The notes beneath the pieces are model-generated. The model worked only from the letters and a program-made list of their open reading frames with translations. It ran no database searches and was not told where the DNA came from. Shown in pieces: positions 15,614 through 64,000 of a DNA stretch of 64,000 nucleotides (position 1 is the stretch's first letter; every line of letters begins with the position of its first letter). This DNA comes from a virus. The stretch lies in the UHGV virus genome UHGV-0370399. One strand, given 5' to 3'. A program made the translations under genes and the position numbers.

Positions 15614-16801
15614 ATGGCGGTAGGTGAAATTCAAATTAGTGCCTTGCCTCAAGCAGCCTTACCAATTGACCTTAGTGATATCTTCCATCTTAAGCAGGGT
15701 ATTGAGGATAAGAGATGTACTCTTGAGCAATTACTTGCTCCACACTCAAGCCTAAGAAATAACCCTCATGGTGTTACTAAAACACAAATTGGTTTAGATA
15801 ACGTTATCAATGCTCTTCAGTTAGTTGCTGCAAATAACTTATCAGACGTTACTAATGTAGCTCAGGCAAGAGCAAATCTACAGATTATGTCTTCAGAAGA
15901 GGTTAATAATCTTGTTCAACAGCATATTCAGGACAAGAGCAACCCACATAATACAACTAAGGTACAGGTAGGATTGAGTAATGTTCAGAACTGGACAACA
16001 TCTAACCTTTATAACGAAGATGCAGATAAGTATGCTACAGCAAGAGCAGTAAATAACTTGTACAAGGCTGTTCAGGCTTCCTATCCAGTAGGTACTATCC
16101 ATCTTTCCATGAACTCTGCAAACCCTTCTACATATTTAATTTGTGGAGGAACTTGGGAGTTAGTTTCAAAAGGTAGAGCATTGGTTGGTTATGACTCTGA
16201 TACAAGACCAACAGGCTCTGTATTTGGTGCTTCAACTGTCACTTTGTCAGTTAATAACATGCCACAACACTCACACTCTGTGTCTCTTAGTGGTGGTGGT
16301 CACACCCATAATGCAACGGTGTCAATTTCAGCTTTTGATTATGGAACTAAGACTACCAACTCTTTTGACTATGGAACAAAGACCACTAACACGACTGGTA
16401 ACCACAACCATGTGGGCAGTGGGTCAACAAATGCGGCTGGTGCTCACAACCATAGATTGACCTATGAAGCAGGTGGTGGTTTATCGGAAAGACCTGCAAT
16501 GGTTTGGTCTACAAGGAATGACCAATCATGGTACTCAGCAGATGCTGTCTGTGAAGTCGCTGGTTCACACACTCACTCTTTCAGTGTTACCACTAACACG
16601 ACTGGTAACCACAGCCACACGGTTGGTATTGGTGCTCACAGCCACACGGTTGGTATTGGTTCACATACACACAATGGTACTGTAACAGTTTCTTCTTCTG
16701 AGCATACGCATAGCGGGAACACTAACAGTATTGGTGGTGGACAAGCTTTTAACATTGAGCAGCCATCCTTCGTACTGTATGTATGGCAGAGAACAGCTTA
16801 A
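15614..16801 (+). CDS. tail fibre protein with His-x-His repeat tip
   Basis: C-terminal 200 aa carry eight H-x-H motifs (SHTHSFS, GNHNHVG, GAHSHTV ...) and end VLYVWQRTA, paralogous to the C-terminus of the next gene. Confidence 0.7.
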   Translation: MAVGEIQISALPQAALPIDLSDIFHLKQGIEDKRCTLEQLLAPHSSLRNNPHGVTKTQIGLDNVINALQLVAANNLSDVTNVAQARANLQIMSSEEVNNLVQQHIQDKSNPHNTTKVQVGLSNVQNWTTSNLYNEDADKYATARAVNNLYKAVQASYPVGTIHLSMNSANPSTYLICGGTWELVSKGRALVGYDSDTRPTGSVFGASTVTLSVNNMPQHSHSVSLSGGGHTHNATVSISAFDYGTKTTNSFDYGTKTTNTTGNHNHVGSGSTNAAGAHNHRLTYEAGGGLSERPAMVWSTRNDQSWYSADAVCEVAGSHTHSFSVTTNTTGNHSHTVGIGAHSHTVGIGSHTHNGTVTVSSSEHTHSGNTNSIGGGQAFNIEQPSFVLYVWQRTA

Positions 16802-16811
16802 TTTCTTTACA

Positions 16812-16831
16812 GGGGCTTGATAGCCCCTTTT
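16812..16831 (+). terminator. intrinsic terminator between the two fibre genes
   Basis: GGGGC ttgata GCCCC followed by TTTT; preceded by TTTACA as in the B-type cassette modules. Confidence 0.6.
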
Positions 16832-16847
16832 AAGAGGAAAATTTATA

Positions 16848-19235
16848 ATGGCAGATTACAAGTTGAGTGAATTAAACTCAATCAATACAATCCGTTCAGA
16901 TGACCTTCTTCATGTCAGAGTTAAAAAGAGACCTGAAATGCTGGGTGATGAAGACCGTCGAATGACCTATCAAGACTTCTTAGCATCTTTTAAACTTGAA
17001 AGGTTTGTTCAGATTGCTGGTAGCACTATGACGGGTGACTTAGGAATTGTTAAGTTACTTTATGGTGGTAAGGTAGTATTTAACCCAACAGGCTCTTCTG
17101 AGATTACTATTGGGGATGTTTTAAAGACTTTTAAAATCAACGCAAACGGCCTTAGATTAACTATTGCAGATGCTTCAAGGTCGGCAACTGTTTATCATAC
17201 TCTGAATAAGCCAAGCCCTAATGAGCTTGGGATGAGAACTAATGAAGAGAATGATGCAAGATATGCAAGGTTGGCTGTAAATAACACCTTTAGAGGCACT
17301 CAAGCTATTCTCTCTGACAATGAAGCTCTTATTGCTAAGAATATTACACAAGGGATGCCACTCTATATTCGTGGTCAAGATGCAGATGGTACTAACAGGT
17401 GGTATCTAGGTAATGATAACAAGGGTACAGACAATCTTGTTTTAAAAAACGTTAAATCTGGTGCATATGTAGCTATTTTAGCTAACCTAATCTCCGTGAA
17501 CAAATCAATCCAAATCACTGGGCAAGTTCAACCTTCTGATTGGACTAACTTAGATGCTAGGTATTTTACTCAGACAGCAGCTAATCAGAGGTTTGCACAG
17601 TTAGCTGGTAATAATACCTTTAGAGGCGTGAATACATTTAATCAAATCCTATCAATTAAGACGAATAGTGCAGCCTTAAGGTTAAAAAACACTGTAGCTA
17701 ATGGTGCACTGTACATTAAAGCCGAAGCTAATGATGGCTCTGGTAAGTGGTATGTAGGTAATGGTGATAATACACCTGCTGTATTAATCCACAACTATAC
17801 GTATGGTTCTAATCTTAGACTCGACAATGGTTATGTTGAGGTTAATAAGCAACTTAAAGTCGTTGGTCAAGTTCAACCTTCTGATTGGACTAACATTGAC
17901 TCTAGATATATTCCGGCAGGAACTTTGAGTAATCTTGCCAAGCTGAGTGATGCAAACACTTTCAGGTCTACACAGGTTATCAATCTGAATGGCTCATTGT
18001 TACAGCTAAAGAACACTACACAAGACAGAGAGCTTTACTTTGCTGGCCATAATGCTGATGGTGTTAGAAGGTGGTACATCGGTAATGGGGAACCATCCAA
18101 CCCAACAAGATTTACTATCCGCAACGACAGAACTGCAACTACGCTTTATATGCAAGACGATTTCTTGTTGGATAAAACTGTCAGAATTACTGGTCAAGTT
18201 CAACCTTCAGATTTCTCTAACTTAGATGCTAGATATTTCTTAAAAACAAAACTGTTAAACCAATCTTTAATGACAAGGACAGCTAATAGACTGGATGACC
18301 CATCATCATTCAACAAAGATTGTTCAGGGTTTGTAAGAAACAACGCTATTGAGCAGGGTCTGAAAGATTTAGCCATCCATGTAGCACATTCTGCTGGTAT
18401 TGCTCATGCCAGAGGTATTGCTTTTACATATGGGTCTAAAGGTCTTGATGTCTTCACATACGCTTATGGGTCAGATGGAGCATATGTTGGAGAGGCACAG
18501 TTGTATTCAACGGCATTTAAACCAACCCCTTCAGGTATTGGTGCATATACTAAAGCTGAAACTGACCAGAAGATTGCACAGGCAGTAAGTGACTCTACAG
18601 ACCTTAATAAAATCTATCCAGTAGGTATTGTGACATGGTTTAACAGCAATGTTGACCCTAATACAGCACTTCCTGGTCTAACTTGGACGTACCTGAACAA
18701 TGGTGTTGGTAGAACTATCAGAATTGCAGCAGCAAACGGTTCAGATGTTGCTACAACTGGTGGTTCAGATTCTGTAACGTTATCTGTTGGCAACTTACCA
18801 TCACACACCCATAGTTTCTCTGCTACCACTTCATCTTTTGATTATGGTACGAAGAACACTAATAGCACTGGTGGTCATACTCACTCTGTAAGTGGCACAA
18901 CAAGTGCTGCTGGTAAACACGCTCACCACTTAGGTCTGCTATTGGTTAATGGTGGTGATGCTCAGTACGGTTATACAACTGTTAGCAATAACAAGACGAG
19001 AACTCTTGACTGGCTTGACAGAACTGATAACAAGTTCCCTAACACTAACACAACTGGTAACCATACACACACATGGTCTGGTACTACAAGTAACACTGGT
19101 GCTCACACCCACTCTGTAGGTATTGGTGCTCACACCCATACAGTTAGGGGTAACACTGGTGGTACAGGTTCTGGTTCAGCATTTAGTGTCACTAACCAGT
19201 TCTACAAGTTGATGGCTTGGGTGAGAACTGCTTAA
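16848..19235 (+). CDS. long tail fibre protein with triplicated internal repeat and His-x-His tip
   Basis: 795 aa; three repeats of about 110 aa each ending [16 protein letters not shown]; C-terminal H-x-H motifs; ends KLMAWVRTA. Confidence 0.75.
17521..18238 (+). repeat. three direct repeats inside the long fibre gene (period about 330-345 nt)
   Basis: ggtcaagttcaaccttctgattggactaac recurs at 17521, 17865 and 18192. Confidence 0.8.
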
Positions 19236-23518: not shown

Positions 23519-23734
23519 CATCCTTCCATACCAAACCTCACCTGACCTCGCCTAACCCTACCTTACCCCACCATACAGCACCTTATTAAAACACCCTGTT
23601 TAAAGACCTTTTAAAAAGGTAAGTCTCATTTTAATGTAGCTGAGACTAACTACCCATACCGAACCTCACCGCACCATACTACACCTGACACCACCTTACA
23701 CCACCGCACCATACCTGACCGAGCTACACATCAC
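23519..23734. repeat. two G-free CA-rich repeat blocks flanking a hairpin
   Basis: Blocks about 23519-23583 and 23651-23734 share ccataccRaacctcacc, caccatac and acctgac motifs; inverted repeat GTCTCA/TGAGAC at 23623-23646 between them. Confidence 0.7.
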
Positions 23735-24009
23735 TTAAAAACCCTTTTCAAAGACTCTTAAGTGATGCTGGTGAGTACCCGTTGGTTTATGCTGCTCAGC
23801 ATACTCACCAAATTTTCTATGTCAACAACTTTCTAATAAAGTTTTATGAAGATTTTGCTTAACAACCCGCCTCACATGCCTGTGCTCTTTCTTAATAAAG
23901 AGTGACCTCTTCTTGATAGAGCGCCTATTCTTGTAAGTATTACTAGGATACTTATCATGAACCGGACAACAGCTACCCGGATTGGTAAACTTGATAATCT
24001 CTCTTTTCA

Positions 24010-26164: not shown

Positions 26165-26215
26165 AATCCCTCCTATACAAGATGTAGTATAAGGTACTCT
26201 TCCCTGAGCACCTTG

Positions 26216-29450: not shown

Positions 29451-29511
29451 TTTTACTCCCTCTAAAATCATTAACCTCATACATTACTGCAAAAAATTAT
29501 AAAAAGCAAGT

Positions 29512-29540
29512 TGACAATGCACTTGACAAGGTGTTAATCT
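29512..29540 (+). promoter_or_regulatory. sigma70-like promoter in the divergent control region
   Basis: TTGACA, 17 bp spacer, TAATCT; a second TTGACA lies 12 bp downstream. Confidence 0.4.
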
Positions 29541-29645
29541 TTGCGAAGTGGGTTTTTACTTAAAAGGTTACTTAACAGTTTAACTATACAGATACTTTAA
29601 AACTCTTAAAAGATTATTTAATAGCTTTTAAAAAGCTTTAAAGTA

Positions 29646-29664
29646 TAACGTATAGAATACGTTA
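29646..29664. promoter_or_regulatory. perfect 8-3-8 palindrome, operator-like
   Basis: TAACGTAT aga ATACGTTA centred on a TAGAAT -10-like hexamer, 45 bp upstream of the ATG at 29708. Confidence 0.5.
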
Positions 29665-29707
29665 AGATAAAAGATTAAAACTTAATAGTTACTTAAAAGA
29701 GGCTTAC

Positions 29708-45270: not shown

Positions 45271-45280
45271 AACTTGACAA

Positions 45281-45318
45281 GGTGATGTAGGTCTTGATAG
45301 GCTTACATCACCTTTTTT
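45281..45318 (+). terminator. intrinsic terminator after nrdD
   Basis: GGTGATGT ... ACATCACC stem followed by TTTTTT. Confidence 0.7.
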
Positions 45319-47641: not shown

Positions 47642-47654
47642 TATTATATGATTA

Positions 47655-49012: not shown

Positions 49013-51379
49013 ATGCGCATGGTAAACGACCACGCAGAAGTGATTAAGAGTTCAACTTCTTTAGAGACGTCTCAAGCACAGATTACAATGACACCTGAAA
49101 TGTTCAGCCTTTTGAGTTCCGGTGTATACACATTTAAAGAAAGGGCAGTGATTCGTGAACTGTCATGTAACGCAGTAGATGCTCAAAAAGAAGCTGGAAA
49201 AGAGAACATCCCGTTCCATGTGCATTTACCTACTCGATTTGAGCCTTACTTTGAAGTCCGTGACTTTGGAACTGGTTTAACCCATGACAAAGTAATGAGT
49301 TTGTATCTGAACTATGGGGCTTCTACGAAGAATGACTCTAATGACTACATTGGTGCAATGGGTATCGGCTCAAAGTCACCGTTTGCGATTGCTCAGTCAT
49401 TCACAGTGTCTAGCTATGTTGATGGTGTTGTTAATAAGTACTCTGTTTACCTTGAGAATGGTATTCCTCAAGTAACTAAGCTTACTACTAACCAAACAAA
49501 TGAACCTAATGGTTTAGCTGTACGTGTGGCAGTTGCTGACCACCGTATTTCAAAGTTCTTTGAAGAGGCTGGTAATGTATACTCATACTTTGCTGTAAAA
49601 CCAGAGAGTAATGTGGAGTATAATGATATATTAGCAGATATGGATGTGATTGCTCGTGAAGAAGGTGTCTATGATGCCATGACTCATAAGCATAGCTGGC
49701 GTTCAAGCAGCAATAGAACAGAGTTTAACGTGGTTATGGGTAATATTGCCTACCCAGTTAATATGGAGGTATTACTTGGTGATGATTTCTTCAAAGTATT
49801 ACCAGAATTTTTCCGCAGGAGCATAGACCTTGTAAACATCTACATGCCTATTGGTTCAGTTGCTTTTGCAGCTTCTCGTGAAGCATTGCAGATGAATGAC
49901 ACGACAAAAAATGTTATCATCGAGGCTACTAAAAAGATAACTGAAGCAATTACAAAGGATGTTATCAAGAAAGTTAATAGTCAACCTACACTCATGGATG
50001 CTGCACAGGCTTATGCTGAGTTACGCTTGAACTCACGAGAGATGTTTAATGTTGTGTGTCCAAAGCTAGAGTGGGGAGGTGTTAAGCTTGATTCTCTGGA
50101 AGAAGAATTACTAAACATTCGTTGTGGAATTATCTACGCAGAGGACGGCTCAGTCATCTATGAACGTGACGGCAAAGGTAATATTAAGGTTGACAGTAAA
50201 GGAAACAACATTCCTAAAGTGGACTACCTATACAATCCAGTTGCTTATGTTAAGTTCAACTCTTTAGAGAGTAAGATTCGTGCAACAGCACTTTCCTACA
50301 CTCAAGAGGCGAGCATGTTCAATATCTTTGGTGCAATGCGTAAAAGCCAAATTGAACAGTTTTTGTTCGTGATTAATGACCGTCGCAATAAAAACGGTAC
50401 TGAAAAGACTGTAGGCCGCAATCAGATTCTGCGTGATGCATGTCGAGACTACGCCAGTGAGTCAAGTCTGTTTCACAGATATAATGGTATTGTGTTTGTA
50501 TTCTCGACTGAAAAAGAGTTAGACGACCTAATCAATCTACACAAACTTGATAAAAGCTTGTTAAAGATTGTGAAGATGTCTGATAAGGAACATTACTATC
50601 AGCGTAAAGAAGCTGTAAGGGGTGTTGTAAAACTCTGGAAAGCTGTTCCAGCAGAAGGTGTAGCTTCCTATAAAGAGGTTTCAGAGGACTTCGATACAAT
50701 TGAAGAACCTCAGCTTTACATTAAGGCAGTTGGTGATACAGTTGATGGCGAATGTTTTTGCTCATCTCCAGAAGATGTAGCCAAGTCAGTTGCTAATGTT
50801 ACAGGGAAGACAGTCTATGTTTTCCGAAAAGCAAATTGGAAAAAGATACCAGAAGACTGGATTGAAGTAGATGAGAAGCTCTTGAACGACAGCTTAACTG
50901 ATGTTCACTGGATTAATCATAACAGGTATATGACACGTATCTATATGAATGGTGTTCTTGACCTTACAAGCAGTTGGATTATCGCCAGAAACTTTACATT
51001 CAATAACAGGAAGATTTCTCGTGGTTATTGCTATTCACGAGATACTAACAAAACTATCTTCCTAGAAGGCAATGAAGATGCTGTAGAGGCAATGTTCGGT
51101 AAAATCCAATACGTTGCTGCACCATTTGCATACACTTATACTGTTAGTGTATTGAAAACTTTGAAAGACTGTCTTGACAATGATACAAAGCTTTACAAGA
51201 AAATTAAGAAAGCTGGTGACCGCATGGTCATTAAGGTGACAAACTACCTTTCAAAAAGAAAACAAGAAAACTTCTTGCTTTCTCATTTAGATTGGAATAA
51301 AGTGTCACCTATCGAAGTGAGTAAGTTCTTAGGCTTTGATGTGAAGTGTGTTCCAGAAGGGACTACAATTTACGATTAA
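49013..51379 (+). CDS. rIIA: rIIA-like protein with GHKL-type ATPase N-terminus
   Basis: ELSCNAVDA (ExxxNxxD), RDFGTGL (DxGxG) and GAMGIGSKS (GxxGxG) are Bergerat-fold ATPase motifs; 788 aa followed by an rIIB-like gene. Confidence 0.65.
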   Translation: MRMVNDHAEVIKSSTSLETSQAQITMTPEMFSLLSSGVYTFKERAVIRELSCNAVDAQKEAGKENIPFHVHLPTRFEPYFEVRDFGTGLTHDKVMSLYLNYGASTKNDSNDYIGAMGIGSKSPFAIAQSFTVSSYVDGVVNKYSVYLENGIPQVTKLTTNQTNEPNGLAVRVAVADHRISKFFEEAGNVYSYFAVKPESNVEYNDILADMDVIAREEGVYDAMTHKHSWRSSSNRTEFNVVMGNIAYPVNMEVLLGDDFFKVLPEFFRRSIDLVNIYMPIGSVAFAASREALQMNDTTKNVIIEATKKITEAITKDVIKKVNSQPTLMDAAQAYAELRLNSREMFNVVCPKLEWGGVKLDSLEEELLNIRCGIIYAEDGSVIYERDGKGNIKVDSKGNNIPKVDYLYNPVAYVKFNSLESKIRATALSYTQEASMFNIFGAMRKSQIEQFLFVINDRRNKNGTEKTVGRNQILRDACRDYASESSLFHRYNGIVFVFSTEKELDDLINLHKLDKSLLKIVKMSDKEHYYQRKEAVRGVVKLWKAVPAEGVASYKEVSEDFDTIEEPQLYIKAVGDTVDGECFCSSPEDVAKSVANVTGKTVYVFRKANWKKIPEDWIEVDEKLLNDSLTDVHWINHNRYMTRIYMNGVLDLTSSWIIARNFTFNNRKISRGYCYSRDTNKTIFLEGNEDAVEAMFGKIQYVAAPFAYTYTVSVLKTLKDCLDNDTKLYKKIKKAGDRMVIKVTNYLSKRKQENFLLSHLDWNKVSPIEVSKFLGFDVKCVPEGTTIYD

Positions 51380-51384
51380 AGTGT

Positions 51385-51414
51385 TTGACAAGGGGCTTCA
51401 AAACCCCTTAGAAT
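51385..51414 (+). promoter_or_regulatory. sigma70-like promoter with hairpin in the spacer
   Basis: TTGACA, spacer aaGGGGcttcaaaaCCCCtt, TAGAAT. Confidence 0.5.
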
Positions 51415-51458: not shown

Positions 51459-52568
51459 ATGACTACCAAAACTAAAGCACAGATTGACGCAGAAATTTAC
51501 AAACTGGTTAAAGAAGGTAAGTTGACTAAAACAGCTATTGCACAGAAATTTAATACTTCAACCCGTTCAGTCGGTCGTGCTGTAGAGCGTCATGAAGCAA
51601 CCTTAAAAGGGAATAAGAAGGCAACTTCTACACCAGCTACGAAGACTTTGAAGCAAGTTGCTAAGACCTTTAAAAAGAAAGCTGACAAACCAGTTGAAAA
51701 GGTTGTTAAAGATGCTGTACAGAAAGCTCCGGTAAATAAACTGCATGAAGCTATGCAGAAAGATGACAAGATTGAGTACATGATTACTGGTGACTCTGTA
51801 ATTATGACTTATGGTTCAGAATCTGAAATTGTTGAGTCTACTCATCCGAACTATCAAGAGATTGTAGTTCATGTTGTGAAAGGTGAGTTCAAAAAAGCCT
51901 TTGAATTGATGAACATTCGTAAGTCTATCGAAAACTTCACTCAGGGCGCTATCACAATCAAAGGTGACAAGTTATTCTACGGTGCTGTTGAGATGCGTTC
52001 TACTCTGGTTGACCGTATTCTTCACATGATGAAGACTGGAGATAAAGGTTTCGAACGCCTTGTGATGTTCTTCGAAAAACTGATGGAAAACCCATCTAAA
52101 GACTCTGTAGAGCAACTTTGGGGCTTCGTATCTCACCTTGATGTTGAAATTGATGAAGAAGGCTACATCATTGGTTGGAAGAAAGTATCTACTCGTGAAG
52201 GCAAGCTGGTTGACTCCCACACCTACAGAGTACCTAATGATTTGGGTAACATTGTAGAAATGCCACGTTGGATGGTTGATAATAACCGTAACGTGACTTG
52301 CTCTCAAGGTCTTCATGTTGGTGCTTGGGATTATGTTCGTTGCTTCTCAGGTGATACAATTCTGAAGGTTCGTGTCCATCCACGAGACGTTGTATCCGTA
52401 CCAACTGATTACAACGATATGAAGATGCGCTCGTCTCGTTATGAAGTTGCAGCAATCGTTGATAATCAACGTAAAGTACTGAAAGCATGGGATGGCAAGA
52501 CTGAAGCTTTGCATGTCATCGTTGGCACTGCTGGGGAACTTATCTCTCAGCGTAAACGTGAAATCTAA
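51459..52568 (+). CDS. rIIB: rIIB-like protein
   Basis: 369 aa directly after the rIIA-like gene; N-terminal HTH-like segment laid out as in T4 rIIB. Confidence 0.6.
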   Translation: MTTKTKAQIDAEIYKLVKEGKLTKTAIAQKFNTSTRSVGRAVERHEATLKGNKKATSTPATKTLKQVAKTFKKKADKPVEKVVKDAVQKAPVNKLHEAMQKDDKIEYMITGDSVIMTYGSESEIVESTHPNYQEIVVHVVKGEFKKAFELMNIRKSIENFTQGAITIKGDKLFYGAVEMRSTLVDRILHMMKTGDKGFERLVMFFEKLMENPSKDSVEQLWGFVSHLDVEIDEEGYIIGWKKVSTREGKLVDSHTYRVPNDLGNIVEMPRWMVDNNRNVTCSQGLHVGAWDYVRCFSGDTILKVRVHPRDVVSVPTDYNDMKMRSSRYEVAAIVDNQRKVLKAWDGKTEALHVIVGTAGELISQRKREI

Positions 52569-56791: not shown

Positions 56792-56975
56792 GCTTTTTCA
56801 TTTCAGAATTGTGCAGGTAGAGTTCTGTAGAGAAATCTGTAGAGAGAATTTTGAACTCCAAAGAGAAAATTCATTTTCAAACTGTGCAGATAATCTCCAA
56901 AGAGCTTTTTCATTTTCAAAACGTGCAGACCACACTCAGGTCGGGCAAGAAAAATCATTTTAGGATTGTGCAGGT
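56792..56975. repeat. four iteron-like copies of a 20 nt motif
   Basis: tcattt(t)cA(g/a)AAtTGTGCAG at about 56799, 56871, 56911 and 56956; tandem tctgtagaga x2 at 56821-56848. Confidence 0.7.
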
Positions 56976-57000
56976 AGGTTTTTATAGAGAGCCAGACCAA

Positions 57001-57031: not shown

Positions 57032-57153
57032 AAAAGTCAAGAGAAAAATTTGTAGCGGATTGAAAAATAATTCTTGATTTGTGTTCTGTTTTGTGGTAGT
57101 CGTGTGCGCCCGTTTCATTACAGTTTTGCCAAAAATATTTTTAAAATTTTTTC

Positions 57154-57245
57154 TTGACTCTTTGAACGTGGTTATCTAGTATTTGCATCAACGGGGAGGG
57201 AATGACCTTCCCCACTAAATAAAGTCCTAAACTGGAGATTCAAAA
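57154..57245 (+). promoter_or_regulatory. cassette module A1: promoter, 5' stem-loop and RBS
   Basis: TTGACT-17-TAGTAT, then caacGGGGAGGGaatgaCCTTCCCCactaaataaagtcctaaactGGAGattcaaaaATG. Confidence 0.65.
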
Positions 57246-57629
57246 ATGGCATATCGTGCACCTAAATTCATCAACAAAGACAACTTTCGCAACGCACTGG
57301 AGAAGTCACTTGATGAGAATTTTAAAGGGAATAAAATTGTTGTTCACGCATTCAATTTTAAGTATGATATCAACGGGAATAAAATCAACCACTACACGGC
57401 AACTATGATAGATGGTACGCTTTCAAGCGAAAAAACTATTCTCAATGCACTTGCTGGACGTGGGAAAAACCTGATAAGATGCGATAAGAGACGTTATCAG
57501 GGCGGCGCATATGGTTATGATGATGCTGTCTATCATCTTGAAAATATGGGCTATTCAGTAGAAAAAGTTGGAGCGTCGCAAATCATCGGTAGTGATGGTT
57601 ATGTAACAATCCTCAAAATTAACAAATAA
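57246..57629 (+). CDS. cassette gene 1, hypothetical protein
   Basis: 127 aa; preceded by module A1; last codons (LKINK) lie inside the next module. Confidence 0.5.
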   Translation: MAYRAPKFINKDNFRNALEKSLDENFKGNKIVVHAFNFKYDINGNKINHYTATMIDGTLSSEKTILNALAGRGKNLIRCDKRRYQGGAYGYDDAVYHLENMGYSVEKVGASQIIGSDGYVTILKINK

Positions 57630-57715
57630 AGTACTTTACAAGGGGCTTATAGTTCGATAAAGTAAGCCCCAGATAAAGAGCTTTACCACTAAATCCTAAA
57701 TTGGAGAACTTAAAA
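57630..57715 (+). promoter_or_regulatory. cassette module B1: hairpin overlapping promoter, plus RBS
   Basis: aagtacTTTACA then GGGGCTTA-13 nt-TAAGCCCC hairpin (57642-57670) containing TAAAGT, then agataaagagctttaccactaaatcctaaattGGAGaacttaaaaATG. Confidence 0.6.
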
Positions 57716-58009
57716 ATGGCTATTATCAAAAACGTTGTAATTACCGCAAAGACTCGTGATGACGCTCGTATCATGGCTAAAAAGTTATGCGGGAAAGTGG
57801 TTGACAACGGAAAACAATCTGCTGTAAGGTGGGGCGTGAAGGTTGATAAACAGTTGAAGTTAAAAAATTCACCGATAAACCTTTTTACATGTGTAAACAC
57901 TATCGGGAAGACAAATGTATACACGAAAAAGGCATATATTAGACGCGTAGCATTAACATCCCCCATTCGCACAATGAGAAGTTATGCAAAGCTGAAAATT
58001 AACAAATAA
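57716..58009 (+). CDS. cassette gene 2, hypothetical basic protein
   Basis: ORF-track start is the TTG inside the module; ATG at 57716 follows the conserved GGAG; ends KLKINK. Confidence 0.5.
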   Translation: MAIIKNVVITAKTRDDARIMAKKLCGKVVDNGKQSAVRWGVKVDKQLKLKNSPINLFTCVNTIGKTNVYTKKAYIRRVALTSPIRTMRSYAKLKINK

Positions 58010-58094
58010 AGTACTTTACATGGGGTTTAAAAGTTGATATCTTAAGCCCCAGATAAAGAGCTTTACCACTCAATCCTAAACTGGAGATTCAAAA
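58010..58094 (+). promoter_or_regulatory. cassette module B2
   Basis: TTTACA, hairpin GGGGTTTAA ... TTAAGCCCC (58022-58050), conserved RBS segment. Confidence 0.6.
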
Positions 58095-58607: not shown

Positions 58608-58699
58608 ATAGATTTCTTTACACGGGGTTATCAAGCTGGTATGATAGCCCCAGATAAAGAGATTTATCAAATAAAGCCCTTAAACTAGGAGATTCTAAA
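58608..58699 (+). promoter_or_regulatory. cassette module B3
   Basis: TTTACA-17-TATGAT with hairpin GGGGTTATCA ... TGATAGCCCC (58624-58651); stem sequence covaries relative to B1. Confidence 0.6.
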
Positions 58700-58996: not shown

Positions 58997-59322
58997 TGAT
59001 GGGTATCACTGCAATCATTGCCATTATAGCACTTTACAAGGCTTATAGCGCATATACTTTGGCAAGTAAGGCAATCACGCAACAGGTTAACAATAATCTC
59101 GTGATGAGCTTTCTAGAGCGTTTAAGTGATGAGCAAATAAAACGGTTAGAAATGAGCTTCAGATTCCAATCAAAAACTTATCAAATCAGCGACATTTTCA
59201 AAGATGATTTCCAGTTAGTCGATGATTATAACTCTCTGATAAATGCTTTAAATATCAGTGATTTAAAAGATTATCATGCTGTAATTGTTCAAGAATTGAG
59301 CAAACGAAAACAAAACTGTTGA
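58990..59322 (+). CDS. cassette gene 5, membrane-anchored hypothetical protein
   Basis: N-terminal hydrophobic helix; coupled to gene 4 with no module between; stop TGA lies inside the next TTGACA. Confidence 0.45.
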   Translation: MLMMGITAIIAIIALYKAYSAYTLASKAITQQVNNNLVMSFLERLSDEQIKRLEMSFRFQSKTYQISDIFKDDFQLVDDYNSLINALNISDLKDYHAVIVQELSKRKQNC

Positions 59323-59413
59323 CACTGATTTCTAGATAGATTAAATTACTAATCAACGGGGAGGGAATGACCTTCCCCACTAAATAAAGTCCTTAAACTA
59401 GGAGATTCAAAAA
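59319..59413 (+). promoter_or_regulatory. cassette module A2
   Basis: TTGACA-17-TAAATT then the conserved stem-loop leader and GGAG. Confidence 0.65.
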
Positions 59414-59686
59414 ATGTATACTACTAACAACGGTCGCACCTTAAATGTCACCTTGCGTCACTATGTAGACGGTGTGATGTGCTTTGAAGATTTACGGGCT
59501 GAGCAACACATCTTAAATTGGCAAGTTGCAGGACTCCAAAAAACTGCTACCGGATACGGTAAAAAGATTCCAACTAGCTGGAAAGTATACTACGAAGGCC
59601 GTTTGCGTAGAATTTATCAAGATGTACACAGCAATAGCGCAACAAGTTACATCATGGTAAAAGGTAAAAAGCTGCATTTAGTATAA
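59414..59686 (+). CDS. cassette gene 6, hypothetical protein
   Basis: 90 aa after module A2. Confidence 0.45.
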   Translation: MYTTNNGRTLNVTLRHYVDGVMCFEDLRAEQHILNWQVAGLQKTATGYGKKIPTSWKVYYEGRLRRIYQDVHSNSATSYIMVKGKKLHLV

Positions 59687-59772
59687 AGTACTTTACAAGG
59701 GGCTTATAGTTCGATAAAGTAAGCCCCAGATAAAGAGCTTTACCACTCAATCCTAAATTGGAGAACTTAAAA
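59687..59772 (+). promoter_or_regulatory. cassette module B4 (near-identical to B1)
   Basis: About 86 bp direct repeat of 57630-57715, hairpin 59699-59727. Confidence 0.6.
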
Positions 59773-60177
59773 ATGGCTATTAATAACCGTGAATTATCAA
59801 CCTTAAAAGCACGTTTGACCGTTAATCGAATCAACATTATGACATCATCAGCGCCTGATGAGACATTGCACAACATTATCGGAAAGATTCAAAGCGTTAT
59901 TTTAGACGTTGAAAACGTAAAAAATTCATTGGCTGACGTTGCAGCAGGTATCACGCTAGACGGTGCGCAATATGAAATGTCCGACATGTTAGGCAAATCT
60001 AAGGTAATGAATAAAGAGTTAGATTTGAAAATGTTCCGATTTGCTGTTAAAGTGTGGCTATCTGTCGAGTATGATGCTAACTTTGCAATCGCTGACTTTT
60101 TCGCCACTTGGTTGCAGCGTAATTTGACTAATCATGACTTCCGTAATATCTGTGATGCAATTTATGCAGAACTTTAA
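59773..60177 (+). CDS. cassette gene 7, hypothetical protein
   Basis: ATG at 59773 (ORF-track start is the TTG inside the module); N-terminus MAI as in genes 2 and 9. Confidence 0.45.
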   Translation: MAINNRELSTLKARLTVNRINIMTSSAPDETLHNIIGKIQSVILDVENVKNSLADVAAGITLDGAQYEMSDMLGKSKVMNKELDLKMFRFAVKVWLSVEYDANFAIADFFATWLQRNLTNHDFRNICDAIYAEL

Positions 60178-60186
60178 AAAATTTTG

Positions 60187-60278
60187 TTGACACTGATTTT
60201 TAGATAGGTTAAATTACACATCAACGGGGAGGGAATGACCTTCCCCACTAAATAAAGTCCTAAACTGGAGATTCTAAA
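60187..60278 (+). promoter_or_regulatory. cassette module A3
   Basis: TTGACA-17-TAAATT then the conserved stem-loop leader. Confidence 0.65.
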
Positions 60279-60527
60279 ATGATGAATTTTTTAAATATCC
60301 CTGATACTTGCCGACTGTTGACGCAACCAGAAAATTTAGGCAAACCTTTCCTGTACCATATGCCAGACAATACACCAAAAACATATAGCTACACGGTTAA
60401 CCGCTTTACGGGTTACGCTGCAAAAAACGGTTACAAGGTTACTACTCAAAAAGTAACACTATTTACAAATATCGAAGAGCTTCCAACAATCGCTGTAAAA
60501 CTAATATTTACGAAGAAGACGCAATAA
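60279..60527 (+). CDS. cassette gene 8, hypothetical protein
   Basis: 82 aa after module A3. Confidence 0.45.
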   Translation: MMNFLNIPDTCRLLTQPENLGKPFLYHMPDNTPKTYSYTVNRFTGYAAKNGYKVTTQKVTLFTNIEELPTIAVKLIFTKKTQ

Positions 60528-60613
60528 AGTACTTTACAGGGGGCTTGGAAGTTGATATCTTAAGCCCCAGATAAAGAGCTTTACCACTAAATCCTAAACT
60601 GGAGAACTTAAAA
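60528..60613 (+). promoter_or_regulatory. cassette module B5
   Basis: TTTACA, hairpin 60540-60568, conserved RBS segment. Confidence 0.6.
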
Positions 60614-60817
60614 ATGGCTATTATCAACGGCTTACACATTGAAACAACTCACATCAAAGATATTAAAGTTGGTGATGTAGTCCTTTCCCACGGCGTAGAG
60701 AAAACTGTCACTGCAAAGGATATTAAAGAGGATTCTTTCATGGGTAGGACTCTTTTCGGTGATTCTTATTGCTTAGGTTACCTTGCAGTTTTAAAAGTTG
60801 TCAAAAATAACAAATAA
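60614..60817 (+). CDS. cassette gene 9, hypothetical small protein
   Basis: 67 aa; starts MAII; ends KNNK inside the next module. Confidence 0.45.
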   Translation: MAIINGLHIETTHIKDIKVGDVVLSHGVEKTVTAKDIKEDSFMGRTLFGDSYCLGYLAVLKVVKNNK

Positions 60818-60902
60818 AGTACTTTACAAGGGGCTTAAAAGTTGATATCTTAAGCCCCAGATAAAGAGCTTTACCACTAAATCCTAAACTGGAGATTCAA
60901 AA
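60818..60902 (+). promoter_or_regulatory. cassette module B6
   Basis: TTTACA, perfect 9 bp hairpin GGGGCTTAA ... TTAAGCCCC (60830-60858). Confidence 0.6.
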
Positions 60903-61477: not shown

Positions 61478-61497
61478 AGCCCCTCACAGGGGCTTTT
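61478..61497 (+). terminator. intrinsic terminator
   Basis: AGCCCCT cac AGGGGCT followed by TTT; same element as 63577-63598. Confidence 0.6.
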
Positions 61498-61511
61498 AGG
61501 GGGCTTAAATC

Positions 61512-61745
61512 ATGCTAACAACCATTTATCTCATCCTCTCAATTTGTAATGGCCATTCATGTGATTTTAAAGGGCTTGAGGAGTTCACAGGAAGTAAAGA
61601 AAATGCTATTCAAGTTTGCCAGATAGCAAGGCAAGACTACCCCGCAAGTGATGATATTCAGTGTTACTTTAAGACAGAAGATGACGACGGAATCTATTTC
61701 GATAGTGTTGATGGTCAGTATGAAATTATCATTGAAAAAGACTAG
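61512..61745 (+). CDS. cassette gene 11, small protein with hydrophobic N-terminus
   Basis: 77 aa; SD aggggg; stop TAG forms the first bases of the next -35 hexamer. Confidence 0.4.
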   Translation: MLTTIYLILSICNGHSCDFKGLEEFTGSKENAIQVCQIARQDYPASDDIQCYFKTEDDDGIYFDSVDGQYEIIIEKD

Positions 61746-61835
61746 ACAAGCCTGATAAAAATCTGTAAATTGTCAATCAACGGGGAGGGAATGACCTTCC
61801 CCACTAAATAAAGTCCTAAACTGGAGAATCTAAAA
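61743..61835 (+). promoter_or_regulatory. cassette module A4
   Basis: TAGACA-17-TAAATT then the conserved stem-loop leader. Confidence 0.6.
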
Positions 61836-62238: not shown

Positions 62239-62307
62239 TGTTCGAGGGGGTTTATCTAAAAGGGATTCACTTAAAAGATTTCTTTATAGATAAGCTTAAA
62301 AAATTGC

Positions 62308-62429
62308 TTGCAATCAGATATCAAAACAAGTAAATTACTAATCAATGGGGAGGGAATGAACTTCCCCACTAAACAAAGCCCTTAAACTAGGAGATTCTAA
62401 AATTCAACTACATCCGTTCAATTCATGTC
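62308..62429 (+). promoter_or_regulatory. cassette module A5 (degenerate; start codon displaced)
   Basis: TTGCAA-17-TAAATT with stem-loop variant GGGGAGGGaatgaaCTTCCCC; the usual ATG position reads aaaattc and the gene ATG is 30 nt further. Confidence 0.5.
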
Positions 62430-62915
62430 ATGTCAAAGCCTGTTAAAGATACCTATGAATTCCGTTGTAATGGGGTACACTTTGCAACCATCACTAAGTC
62501 AGAAAACGGGGCTTATTATGTACATCGTCGTAATGTTGCAACCGTTGTAGTCTCTCACTTTATGCAAGCTGTAGCGGAATTATTACCGTTATTCTTAGAG
62601 ATTTACTTAGATGAGTGTAAAAACGTTCACAACCACGTTAAAAACCTTTTAAACGGTTATAAAATGGCTTATGAACGTTCTATTAAGTCACTGAATAAGT
62701 TTTACAATGCACCTGCAAATACTGTTTCAATGGCTTATGATGTAAACGGTGAGTTAGTTAGCCTCTTCGAAGTGGAAGGAATTAAGCTGTATAATTTACG
62801 TCCTAGCGGTTACTCTAAGACTCTTGGTGAAGGTTTATCCTTTAATATCAAGAACTTAGAAAAAACTTTAAAAGACATTGAAAAAGATATTGACGAGACA
62901 CTTAAAAGTCTGTAA
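62430..62915 (+). CDS. cassette gene 13, hypothetical protein
   Basis: 161 aa; ATG far from the module SD; stop TAA lies inside the next -10 hexamer. Confidence 0.4.
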   Translation: MSKPVKDTYEFRCNGVHFATITKSENGAYYVHRRNVATVVVSHFMQAVAELLPLFLEIYLDECKNVHNHVKNLLNGYKMAYERSIKSLNKFYNAPANTVSMAYDVNGELVSLFEVEGIKLYNLRPSGYSKTLGEGLSFNIKNLEKTLKDIEKDIDETLKSL

Positions 62916-62981
62916 ATTGTCAATCAACGGGGAGGGAATGACCTTCCCCACTAAGTAAAGTCCTAAACTGGAGTTATCAAG
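62890..62981 (+). promoter_or_regulatory. cassette module A6
   Basis: TTGACG-17-TAAATT then the conserved stem-loop leader. Confidence 0.6.
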
Positions 62982-63245
62982 ATGGAAAACGTAGAATTAA
63001 CCACACTTTTACAAATTGCAACCGACAAAGAAAACGTAGCTTTATTTCACCGCATCGAAAGTGATTTGTTCAATGGTGAAATCATCAAAGAGTCTTACGA
63101 GGTTGTTGGATTCAAAGATGGTAAAACATTTGGATTCTTTGACCTCGAAAAAGGCAACGCTGTTACAAAATATGATGTTTTATCTTGTGAGATTCTTACA
63201 AAATACAATGAAAAAAGGCTTGCAACATACGCCAATATGCAGTAA
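62982..63245 (+). CDS. cassette gene 14, hypothetical protein
   Basis: 87 aa; stop TAA coincides with the -10 TAAATT of the next module. Confidence 0.45.
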   Translation: MENVELTTLLQIATDKENVALFHRIESDLFNGEIIKESYEVVGFKDGKTFGFFDLEKGNAVTKYDVLSCEILTKYNEKRLATYANMQ

Positions 63246-63311
63246 ATTACTAATCAACGGGAGGCGATAACCTCCCCACTAAATAAAACCCTTAAACTAG
63301 GAGATTCAAAA
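63220..63311 (+). promoter_or_regulatory. cassette module A7 (stem-loop with compensatory changes)
   Basis: TTGCAA-17-TAAATT; leader hairpin GGGAGG cgataa CCTCCC replaces GGGGAGGG aatga CCTTCCCC while keeping base-pairing. Confidence 0.6.
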
Positions 63312-63725
63312 ATGGCAACTATCCGCGCTACTGTTAACGAGTTCGGTTTTTCCTCTCTGGATGTTAAATTTGACATTGCAGGCACTGATAACGCCTTTGA
63401 AATGGTGAAAGGTCTTATCAGTCAGACCATCAAAGACTATAATCCTTCTGATGAGTTCTGGAAAGAAACAAAACAGGAAGTTCTCAAAGAGGGTTATTCT
63501 TATCACTATTGGGGTGAAAAAATTGTCTCTCTGTACTACGACAAAGAAGGCACTATAGCCTCAGATACCTTTATACAGCCCCTCATAGGGGCTTTTTTAC
63601 GTCTATCCAATCCTTATACAATCCCTTTCCCTCACCTTTCCAGAATCTTATCAGACCTTAAAAGCAATAACTCTATAGTCTACTCTATAACCTCTTATCA
63701 AATCAACTTAAATAAAAGCCAATAA
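63312..63725 (+). CDS. cassette gene 15, hypothetical protein (3' end uncertain)
   Basis: 137 aa ORF after module A7; a terminator-like hairpin lies inside it about 130 nt before the stop. Confidence 0.4.
   Translation: MATIRATVNEFGFSSLDVKFDIAGTDNAFEMVKGLISQTIKDYNPSDEFWKETKQEVLKEGYSYHYWGEKIVSLYYDKEGTIASDTFIQPLIGAFLRLSNPYTIPFPHLSRILSDLKSNNSIVYSITSYQINLNKSQ
63577..63598 (+). terminator. terminator-like hairpin embedded in the last cassette ORF
   Basis: AGCCCCT cat AGGGGCT followed by TTTTT. Confidence 0.5.
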
Positions 63726-63943
63726 CCCCAGAAAGGGGATGGCCCATTTAAACGCTCTATAAAGCTCTATAACAGCCTTATCAACCTAACTTAAGGGATT
63801 GCATTAACCTATCTTAAAAAGCTCTTTACAGGGCTTTATAGAGGCTTAAAAGAATCTTATAAGGGTGTAAGCTTATAGGCTGGTTAGTATCTTGTGAATG
63901 GTTAAACAACCCCCTTGCTAGTCACTAAAAAGCATGTTATAGG

Positions 63944-64000
63944 GGCTATAAAGTTACTTCAAAGTTACGTAAAAAAGGCTATAAAGTTACTTCAAAGTTA
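63944..64000. repeat. tandem 33 bp repeat truncated by the window edge
   Basis: ggctataaagttacttcaaagtta at 63944 and 63977 separated by cgtaaaaaa; CTATAAAG-like motifs also at 63764-63784 and 63834-63845. Confidence 0.7.

Follow-up and report, generated by a model that had tools for sequence, protein, structure and literature searches.

The window analysed here is a 64,000-nucleotide stretch of the virus genome UHGV-0370399, and its subject is a short hairpin of a G run and a C run that lies between two tail-fibre genes. The window, with its GC content given as 39%, is a segment of a Felixounavirus (Ounavirinae) genome: a 3.7-kb query around the tail-fibre site returned 238 phage records, nearly all of them Felixounavirus, and the best match was NRG857CP1 with 96.7% identity over this query. 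An earlier note had linked the hairpin to repeated cassettes of the early region, to the promoter spacer of rIIB, and to sites at 61478 and 63577. All four sequences that it cited are present in the window.

The hairpin at the tail-fibre junction

Tail-fibre gene 1 (15614..16801, plus strand), taken from the list of open reading frames (ORFs), encodes 395 aa and ends with TAA at 16799-16801; it carries the Pfam domain Gp10_C, and its orthologues are annotated as tail fiber protein. Tail-fibre gene 2 (16848..19235, plus strand) starts with ATG at 16848 and encodes 795 aa, and its identification is based on the Pfam domain gp37_trimer (E=1.4e-57) and on orthologue annotation. Past the TAA, the plus strand reads TTTC, the -35-like hexamer TTTACA (16806..16811), the hairpin AGGGGCT-tgat-AGCCCCT (16811..16828), TTT, and the Shine-Dalgarno sequence (SD) AAGAGGA of tail-fibre gene 2 (16832-16838); the letters next to the hairpin on its 3' side are TTTAAGAGGAAA. 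The 7-bp stem with its 4-nt loop begins 9 nt past the stop codon of tail-fibre gene 1 and ends 3 nt ahead of the SD of tail-fibre gene 2. A short U tract, which is UUUU when the last stem base is included, runs directly into this SD (16829..16838, plus strand). The earlier note had described the TTTACA-GGGGC hairpin between these genes, and it is there, with TTTACA starting one base to the right of where it had been placed.

The hairpin alone folds with -12.3 kcal/mol, and together with a weak lower stem the value is -16.5 kcal/mol (z=-3.15 in context). The junction was compared among 26 IMG/VR loci, three Mooglevirus genomes and one distant Yersinia phage, and all of them contain a G-run/C-run hairpin at this place. 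The Yersinia phage keeps the stem even though the N-terminus of its tail fibre is only 29.5% identical. Among 20 distinct sequences of relatives the stem was 98.6% paired, and the loop occurred in at least 11 forms. Because the stem was kept while the flanking coding DNA diverged considerably, it is under purifying selection. The hexamer TTTACA is kept at the junction in all Felixounavirus loci; Suspvirus-type loci have ATTACA and Mooglevirus has TTTATAA. Rfam covariance models, applied at the gathering score across the 64-kb window, gave zero matches.

The same element had been predicted in Felix O1 as the Rho-independent terminator t76 between genes 76 and 77 (Whichard et al. 2010, PMC3185647, Table 2). 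Felix O1 t76 (gggggctgtacagccctcttt) occupies the same orthologous position and is the counterpart of the hairpin in the window, with the same GC-rich 7-bp stem and 4-nt loop right after the stop codon and with U residues next. A terminator at this junction is also annotated in the KhF2 and Moogle records. The strength of U tracts was expressed as a TransTermHP-style tail score, which ranges from -4.1 to -5.8 for the clear terminators of this genome. The tail UUUUAAGAGG of the window scored -4.08, within the terminator range of the genome and at its bottom, and UCUUUCUAGAGG of the Felix O1-type loci scored -3.5. RT-PCR (reverse transcription PCR) of Felix O1 placed the expression peak of genes 76 and 77 late in infection and put the two into one late class, and gp77, which is encoded past the hairpin, was the top-scoring virion protein by mass spectrometry. 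Since the downstream gene is co-expressed and its product is abundant in virions, termination at the hairpin would be partial at best. Typical intrinsic terminators differ in this respect and in the U tract, which is short here (4 U) and is absent in Mooglevirus-type relatives.

From the structure, the conservation, the promoter geometry and the motif statistics reported here, we infer leaky termination, stabilisation and a common descent of the copies, and we lean towards the following reading as a whole, with a confidence somewhat above even. The hairpin would be transcribed within the late tail-fibre message, where it most likely acts as a weak, leaky Rho-independent terminator (attenuator) and also as a protective 3'-end hairpin for the upstream message. 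By sequence it would belong to a loose Felixounavirus family of G-first hairpins (GGGGCT..AGCCCC). The full-blown members of this family would be composite promoter/stem-loop modules of the PeSL (promoter-early stem-loop) type known from T4-type phages, with the hairpin placed in the 17-18-nt spacer at rIIB and over the spacer and the -10 box in the repeated type-B modules of the early region. The tail-fibre copy would have retained the -35-like hexamer and the stem, and it would not be a promoter, lacking a -10 box; its TTTACA is probably a vestige or a piece of the motif shared with the cassettes. At 61478 and 63577, where the C-rich arm comes first, the hairpins would be ordinary intrinsic terminators and a separate thing.

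Several observations weigh against this reading. Mooglevirus-type relatives have lost the U tract (CCCCTATAAAGAGG, CCCCTAGAAAGAGG; UAUAAAGAGG or UAGAAAGAGG) and have tail scores of -2.7 and -2.3, so the conserved function of the hairpin may not be termination. A simple terminator scan with a threshold of at least 5 T in 8 made no call at the hairpin, whose U tract has only 4 U. The stem shows almost no compensatory change and three of its G-C pairs are invariant, a pattern compatible with sequence-specific recognition of the stem. When the 45-nt tail-fibre element was aligned to the window by the Smith-Waterman method, the cassettes ranked first, and their scores of 26-30 were not above the maxima of shuffled queries (median 25, max 32). 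Common descent of the tail-fibre copy and the cassettes is thus unproven, and homology of the whole element is not claimed as shown. A literature search found no 3'-end or 5'-end mapping and no usable transcriptomics for any Felixounavirus.

The surrounding DNA is mosaic. A sharp boundary lies at the start of tail-fibre gene 2 (16698-16997 compared with the relatives L007, L014, L015 and L017): in Felix O1-type relatives the identity is 67-68% in the 150 nt leading up to the ATG and 96-97% in the 150 nt that follow it, and it falls again from about 17300. The hairpin stands on the divergent side of this boundary. A role of the hairpin as a recombination junction for module exchange is therefore unsupported, as the high-identity block begins at the ATG of tail-fibre gene 2. 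A fusion of both fibre proteins by stop-codon read-through or frameshift was also rejected, because the frame of tail-fibre gene 1, read from the sequence, meets a TGA shortly inside tail-fibre gene 2.

Related hairpins in the rIIB promoter and the early region

The genes rIIA (ORF 49013-51379, PHROGs E=1e-186) and rIIB (ORF 51459-52568, PHROGs E=9e-89) flank the second site. Exactly as the earlier note had reported, the plus strand at 51385..51414, upstream of rIIB, reads TTGACA-N18-TAGAAT. TTGACA lies at 51385-51390, the hairpin AAGGGG-cttcaaaa-CCCCTT fills the 18-nt spacer (51390-51409), and TAGAAT lies at 51409-51414. This is the best sigma70 match within 44-64 kb, with 11/12 consensus positions, and its orthologue is annotated as a promoter in the GenBank record of ASO1B. 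Comparison of 19 loci shows little or no change in the -35 box, the -10 box and the GGGGCT..AGCCCC stem, along with a variable loop and a spacer of 17 or 18 nt. The hairpin is a perfect GGGGCT..AGCCCC in 17/19 relatives; in the window it is weak (-8 kcal/mol), with a C.A mismatch that is common to the window and one relative. Its tail score of -3.0 indicates a poor U tail, and it is not a canonical terminator. The upstream half (TAAAGTGTTTGACAAGGGGCTT) equals that of type B (TAAAGTACTTTACAAGGGGCTT) at 20/25 positions, as read by eye from the sequences. Judged by its sequence, the rIIB site is a genuine sigma70-type promoter with a hairpin in the spacer, type-B-like and short-looped. This copy is single and holds a fixed position between conserved genes, as the tail-fibre copy does.

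The early region contains two repeated 5' modules, type A and type B. The layout of type B is AAATAAAGTAC-TTTACA-N17-TAnnnT, with GGGGCTTA..TAAGCCCC lying across the spacer and the -10 box. The window has six copies, all on the plus strand, and relatives have 4 to 10. The copy at 57627..57685 has TTTACA at 57635-57640, the -10 box TAAAGT at 57658-57663, the upper stem GGGGCTTA/TAAGCCCC and the lower stem TAAAGTACTTTA/TAAAGAGCTTTA. The copy at 58007..58065 has TATCTT as its -10 box. The third copy (58609..58666) has TGnTATGAT and compensatory stems (GGGGTTATC/GATAGCCCC and TAGATTTCTTTA/TAAAGAGATTTA), and it folds with -22.2 kcal/mol (z=-5.3). The remaining copies are at 59684..59742, 60525..60583 and 60815..60873.

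Statistics for type B were taken from 118 copies in the window and 26 related loci. The TAnnnT hexamer follows TTTACA at a distance of 17 nt in 111/118 copies. The whole element is a quasi-palindrome of ~60 nt with a lower stem of 12 positions, a 3x3 internal loop (CAA/AGA), an upper stem of 8-9 bp and an embedded sigma70 promoter. The upper stem covaries: T-A and A-T are exchanged for each other at positions 7-9, and C-G is exchanged for U.G at position 5. The lower stem TAAAGTACTTTA/TAAAGAGCTTTA was kept in the 71 distinct copies in which it was assessed; within it, G-C is exchanged for U-A, and a U.G wobble is nearly constant. At two stem positions, U.G wobbles were found in 23/49 and 65/71 distinct copies. 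Each of these plus-strand wobbles would turn into a C.A mismatch if the minus strand or a DNA cruciform were what folds, so a sense-strand RNA is most simply taken as the structure under selection. Only read-through transcripts would contain this RNA hairpin, because transcription is predicted to start immediately 3' of the upper stem. With a tail score of -1.7, type B is not a canonical terminator.

In one relative (L050:7009-7786), type-B elements bound a unit of 430 bp that is present as a tandem duplication (copies 7009/7439 and 7356/7786). Recombination between cassettes would be expected to give rearrangements of this sort.

Type A consists of TTGACA-N17-TAAATT, a hairpin in the 5' untranslated region (GGGGAGGG-aatga-CCTTCCCC, -13.7 kcal/mol), the conserved leader ACTAAATAAAGTCCTAAACTGGAGATTC and ATG. 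The type-A cassettes lie at 57143-57231, 59308-59396, 60176-60264, 61732-61820, 62297-62385, 62879-62967 and about 63215-63313. The ASO1B record labels the type-A hairpin 'terminator' although it is downstream of the promoter. The type-B and type-A repeats were recorded, without interpretation, as the '57 bp' and '39 bp direct repeats' of Felix O1 (Whichard et al. 2010, PMC3185647).

Two further hairpins are canonical intrinsic terminators on the plus strand, and both are orthologously conserved. The one at 61478..61498 is AGCCCCT-cac-AGGGGCT followed by UUUU (tail score -4.10), and the one at 63577..63599, at the end of the early array, is AGCCCCT-cat-AGGGGCT followed by UUUUUU (tail score -5.14). 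The orthologue of the latter is the predicted terminator t23 of Felix O1 (Whichard et al. 2010, PMC3185647), and a G-first site just upstream of it is intact in the closest relative. The earlier note had regarded both hairpins as reduced forms of the cassette element. This does not hold, because the C-rich arm comes first, an order that inversion cannot yield, and because they lack TTTACA and have proper T runs. As a general trend in this genome, tails are weak at G-first hairpins and strong at C-first ones (..GGGGCUUUUU). Many other terminators of the genome are built on unrelated stems, such as GGCTCC and GGTCTC.

An ORF of 137 aa (63312-63725) runs straight through the conserved terminator hairpin at 63577-63593 into DNA that looks non-coding; its 3' end is probably over-extended, or its stop codon was lost in this phage. 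At 63825-63850, CTCTTTACAGGGCTTTATAGAGGCTT is a degenerate look-alike of the tail-fibre element. The non-coding stretches 56798-56990 and 63940-64000 contain short direct repeats, with three units of ~35 nt (CTCCAAAGAG..TTTTCAAACTGTGCAGA) and two copies of GGCTATAAAGTTACTTCAAAGTTA. Between genes of the leftward block, 23728-23768 on the minus strand forms a long imperfect hairpin with a stem of 19 positions (-17.5 kcal/mol) and no T run.

Shared flanks and alternative readings

The shared flank is real as a pattern. The motif of the earlier note, TTTACAN{0,1}GGGGCT, matched 5 times in comparison with 0.01 expected. Four of these matches are type-B copies and are not independent, which leaves the tail-fibre site as one independent recurrence of the 12-mer (p about 0.01). 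The tail-fibre site and the type-B copy at 58609-58666 also have the 11-mer ATTTCTTTACA in common. TTKAC directly precedes 5/19 independent intergenic hairpins, given an intergenic density of 0.0058 per nt (binomial p=1.7e-4). These five are the tail-fibre hairpin, 26191 (minus strand), 45279, rIIB and the type-B family, which was counted once. TTKACAAGG had 11 matches versus 1.8 expected. The idea of one hairpin family across the genome therefore stands in so far as G-run/C-run hairpins adjoin -35-like hexamers at several places and rIIB resembles type B, and it does not stand as one functional class.

The 11-mer TTGACAAGGTG occurs three times, always in intergenic DNA, at 26211 (-), 29523 (+) and 45274 (+). 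Two copies stand immediately ahead of hairpins, namely the one at 26191-26214 and the 16-bp terminator hairpin at 45279-45314, and the third copy lies in the divergent-promoter gap 29481-29707.

Many relatives contain a second tail-fibre-like unit, CTTTATA-GGGGCTT..AGCCCC-ATTTTGAGAG (also -ATTTTGAGAGAG), between prs-like and NAMPT-like genes. At L033:53-2221 and equivalent loci, the ORFs around this hairpin unit are a ribose-phosphate-pyrophosphokinase-like one and a NAMPT-like one of 593 aa, both identified from their translations only. The prs-like and NAMPT-like genes are absent from the window, and nothing in it matched the beginning of the NAMPT-like gene. The position 47654 was considered as an orthologue of the CTTTATA hairpin and was rejected, as the alignment shows a different locus. 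When 2.9 million viral contigs were scanned for TTTAYAGGGGCTN{3,5}AGCCCC, 41 stretches were found, and 31 of them were in Ounavirinae contigs at the tail-fibre and prs/NAMPT loci. In the 18.4 kb of the closest relative beyond window position 64000 there was no further TTKAYA+GGGG site (the 3.7 kb before position 1 were unscanned); more G-first hairpins were present there, including the orthologue of the Felix O1 terminator t38.

These flanks bear on the question of whether the tail-fibre hairpin has any relation to the cassettes. It could be just another GC-rich terminator in an AT-rich phage, with TTTACA and the likeness to the cassettes meaningless. The alignment scores, which do not exceed those of shuffles, agree with such a coincidence, and so does the loss of TTTACA outside Felixounavirus; moreover, G-run/C-run stems are the easiest stable hairpins in DNA of this GC content, and the PeSL authors too note polyG/polyC tracts. 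The 12-mer test, the excess of -35-like hexamers beside hairpins, the 11-mer common to the tail-fibre site and a cassette, and the second locus with CTTTATA-GGGGCTT in relatives speak for more than chance, and we consider pure coincidence rather unlikely. The opposite extreme, as proposed in the earlier note, is that all hairpins form one functional family, a combined terminator and promoter-proximal signal that a dedicated phage or host factor recognises by the invariant GGGGC/GCCCC stem. The stem sequence is indeed nearly invariant across genera with varying loops, the same 6-7-mer arms recur at several loci, and the motif is strongly enriched. However, the sites are unlike one another in arm order, in loop length (3 to 13 nt), in flanks and in tails, and other terminators of the same genome use unrelated stems. 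The combined role fails for the individual sites: the tail-fibre copy has no -10 box, type B and rIIB have poor tails, and 61478 and 63577 have a different arm order. The U.G wobbles of type B fit an RNA helix and not a DNA palindrome. A dimeric DNA-binding protein is disfavoured since the spacing of half-sites varies from 3-4 to 11-13 nt and since the frequent T.G asymmetries, which are C.A mismatches on the other strand, are of the RNA type. The authors of the Felix O1 genome found no RNA-polymerase-modifying genes (Whichard et al. 2010, PMC3185647). Nothing in the pattern requires a dedicated factor; sigma70 features account for the conservation together with RNA folding, host RNA polymerase and this folding are enough to explain the pattern, and we regard a factor-recognised family as quite improbable. 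With low confidence, the G-first hairpins may instead represent a PeSL-like system that the Ounavirinae own independently of the T4-like one, spread by recombination in full and in stripped-down versions. Within this tentative reading, type B would be an early promoter inside an RNA hairpin of ~60 nt, at which read-through transcripts would be processed (RNase III-like) or stabilised and just 3' of which a fresh transcript would start. On the same tentative terms, derivatives that keep only the RNA function would lie at the tail-fibre junction, in the rIIB spacer, at the prs/NAMPT junction and immediately before t23/63577.

Two other proposals concern tail-fibre gene 2 itself. The element might be a working promoter for this gene with TTTACA as its -35 box, as in type B, since TTTACA adjoins the hairpin exactly as in the cassettes and is present in all Felixounavirus loci. 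However, the hexamers at N16-18 from TTTACA are TTTTAA, TTTAAG and TTAAGA, and none of them combines A at position 2 with T at position 6, the two essential bases, so the TAnnnT of the cassettes is missing. A sigma70 promoter scan made no call at 16806, the candidate -10 position is not kept in the Felix O1-type loci (CTTTCT) or in Mooglevirus, and an early sigma70 promoter before a late structural gene conflicts with the late expression of genes 76 and 77. A promoter at this site was rejected for want of a -10 box and of a scan call, and it is very unlikely. A T4-type late promoter at the junction was rejected as well, as Mooglevirus TATAAAGA and Felixounavirus TTTTAAGA have no consistent late-promoter motif. 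Alternatively, the lower stem, formed by UUUCUU (16802-16807) and AAGAGG (16832-16837), would hide the SD of tail-fibre gene 2, and ribosomes ending at the stop codon of tail-fibre gene 1 would open it, which would couple translation of the two genes. The minimum-free-energy fold contains this stem, the stop codon directly adjoins its 5' strand, and the sequences of Felix O1-type loci allow an equivalent pairing (UCUUUUA/UAGAGGA). Yet the cells of the lower helix are 82% paired and, in versions slid by +1 to +3 columns, the whole structure is 73-78% paired, so the pairing is unspecific; it is also weak, with A-U and G.U pairs, and poor in Mooglevirus. An SD-occluding stem is thus suggested by the fold, its pair counts are no better than those of slid controls, and it is retained only as a minor and doubtful rival of the leaky terminator.

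In T4-like contigs of ~175 kb (L073, L074, L081 and L097), a GGGGCT..AGCCCC hairpin on the other strand is followed directly by TATAAATA, which is the T4 late-promoter consensus, and by SD and ATG. This arrangement is a terminator and then a late promoter, with the same stem.

Comparison with known systems and implications

The PeSLs of T4-type phages are composite promoter/stem-loop cassettes for which experiments demonstrated activity both as promoters and as terminators (Arbiol et al. 2010, PMC2839356; Comeau et al. 2014, PMC4122927). They recur next to small ORFs of a hyperplastic region in which close relatives differ by indels, and recombination mini-circles are a further trait of theirs; reporter fusions and inverse PCR were used in PMC2839356. 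Their layout consists of AT-rich upstream DNA, a sigma70 promoter, a polyG/polyC stem-loop between -35 and -10 or over -10, and SD with ATG on the 3' side (PMC2839356; PMC4122927). Type B and rIIB resemble them in having a strong sigma70-like promoter, AT-rich upstream DNA, a stem-loop of a G run and then a C run at the spacer or -10 box, and SD with ATG at the 3' end. The rIIB stem fills the spacer and the type-B stem spans the spacer and the -10 box, in contrast to the tail-fibre stem, which only adjoins the -35-like hexamer. Type B is also PeSL-like in that its copies border small ORFs of a variable early region and differ in number among relatives. Unlike published PeSLs, these elements belong to an Ounavirinae phage, which is not T4-like, and have no sequence homology to them. 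Type B has in addition its lower stem, which makes a hairpin of ~60 nt, and its likeness to PeSLs is one of layout. The tail-fibre copy is single, lies in a conserved late operon and has no -10 box, and it is neither promoter nor repeat. The literature search found no paper linking PeSLs with Felix O1. On present sequence evidence, type B and rIIB fit the PeSL architecture in another phage subfamily, and the tail-fibre copy is best filed as a weak intrinsic terminator or attenuator that shares its hairpin and 5' flank with the PeSL-like family.

A different comparison concerns RNA processing. Phage T7 has RNase III processing hairpins between its early genes. Type-B RNA is similar to these sites in its predicted shape, a helix of ~20 bp broken by the 3x3 internal loop and located between early cistrons. 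With only 6-8 bp, the hairpins at the tail-fibre junction and at rIIB fall well below such a length, and an embedded promoter like that of type B is not known from the T7 sites.

For the tail-fibre site alone the picture stays much the same, a terminator that had been predicted before and is probably leaky, and not a new regulatory system. For the early region, the analysis offers a rational annotation of the 57-bp and 39-bp direct repeats of Felix O1 and identifies likely early promoters, which the published annotations mostly missed. These results suggest that the composite promoter/stem-loop architecture of T4-type phages is present too in a myovirus lineage that is unrelated to them and has wide use in the biocontrol of Salmonella and E. 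coli, and they point to intergenic elements that should be kept intact when engineers swap tail-fibre modules.

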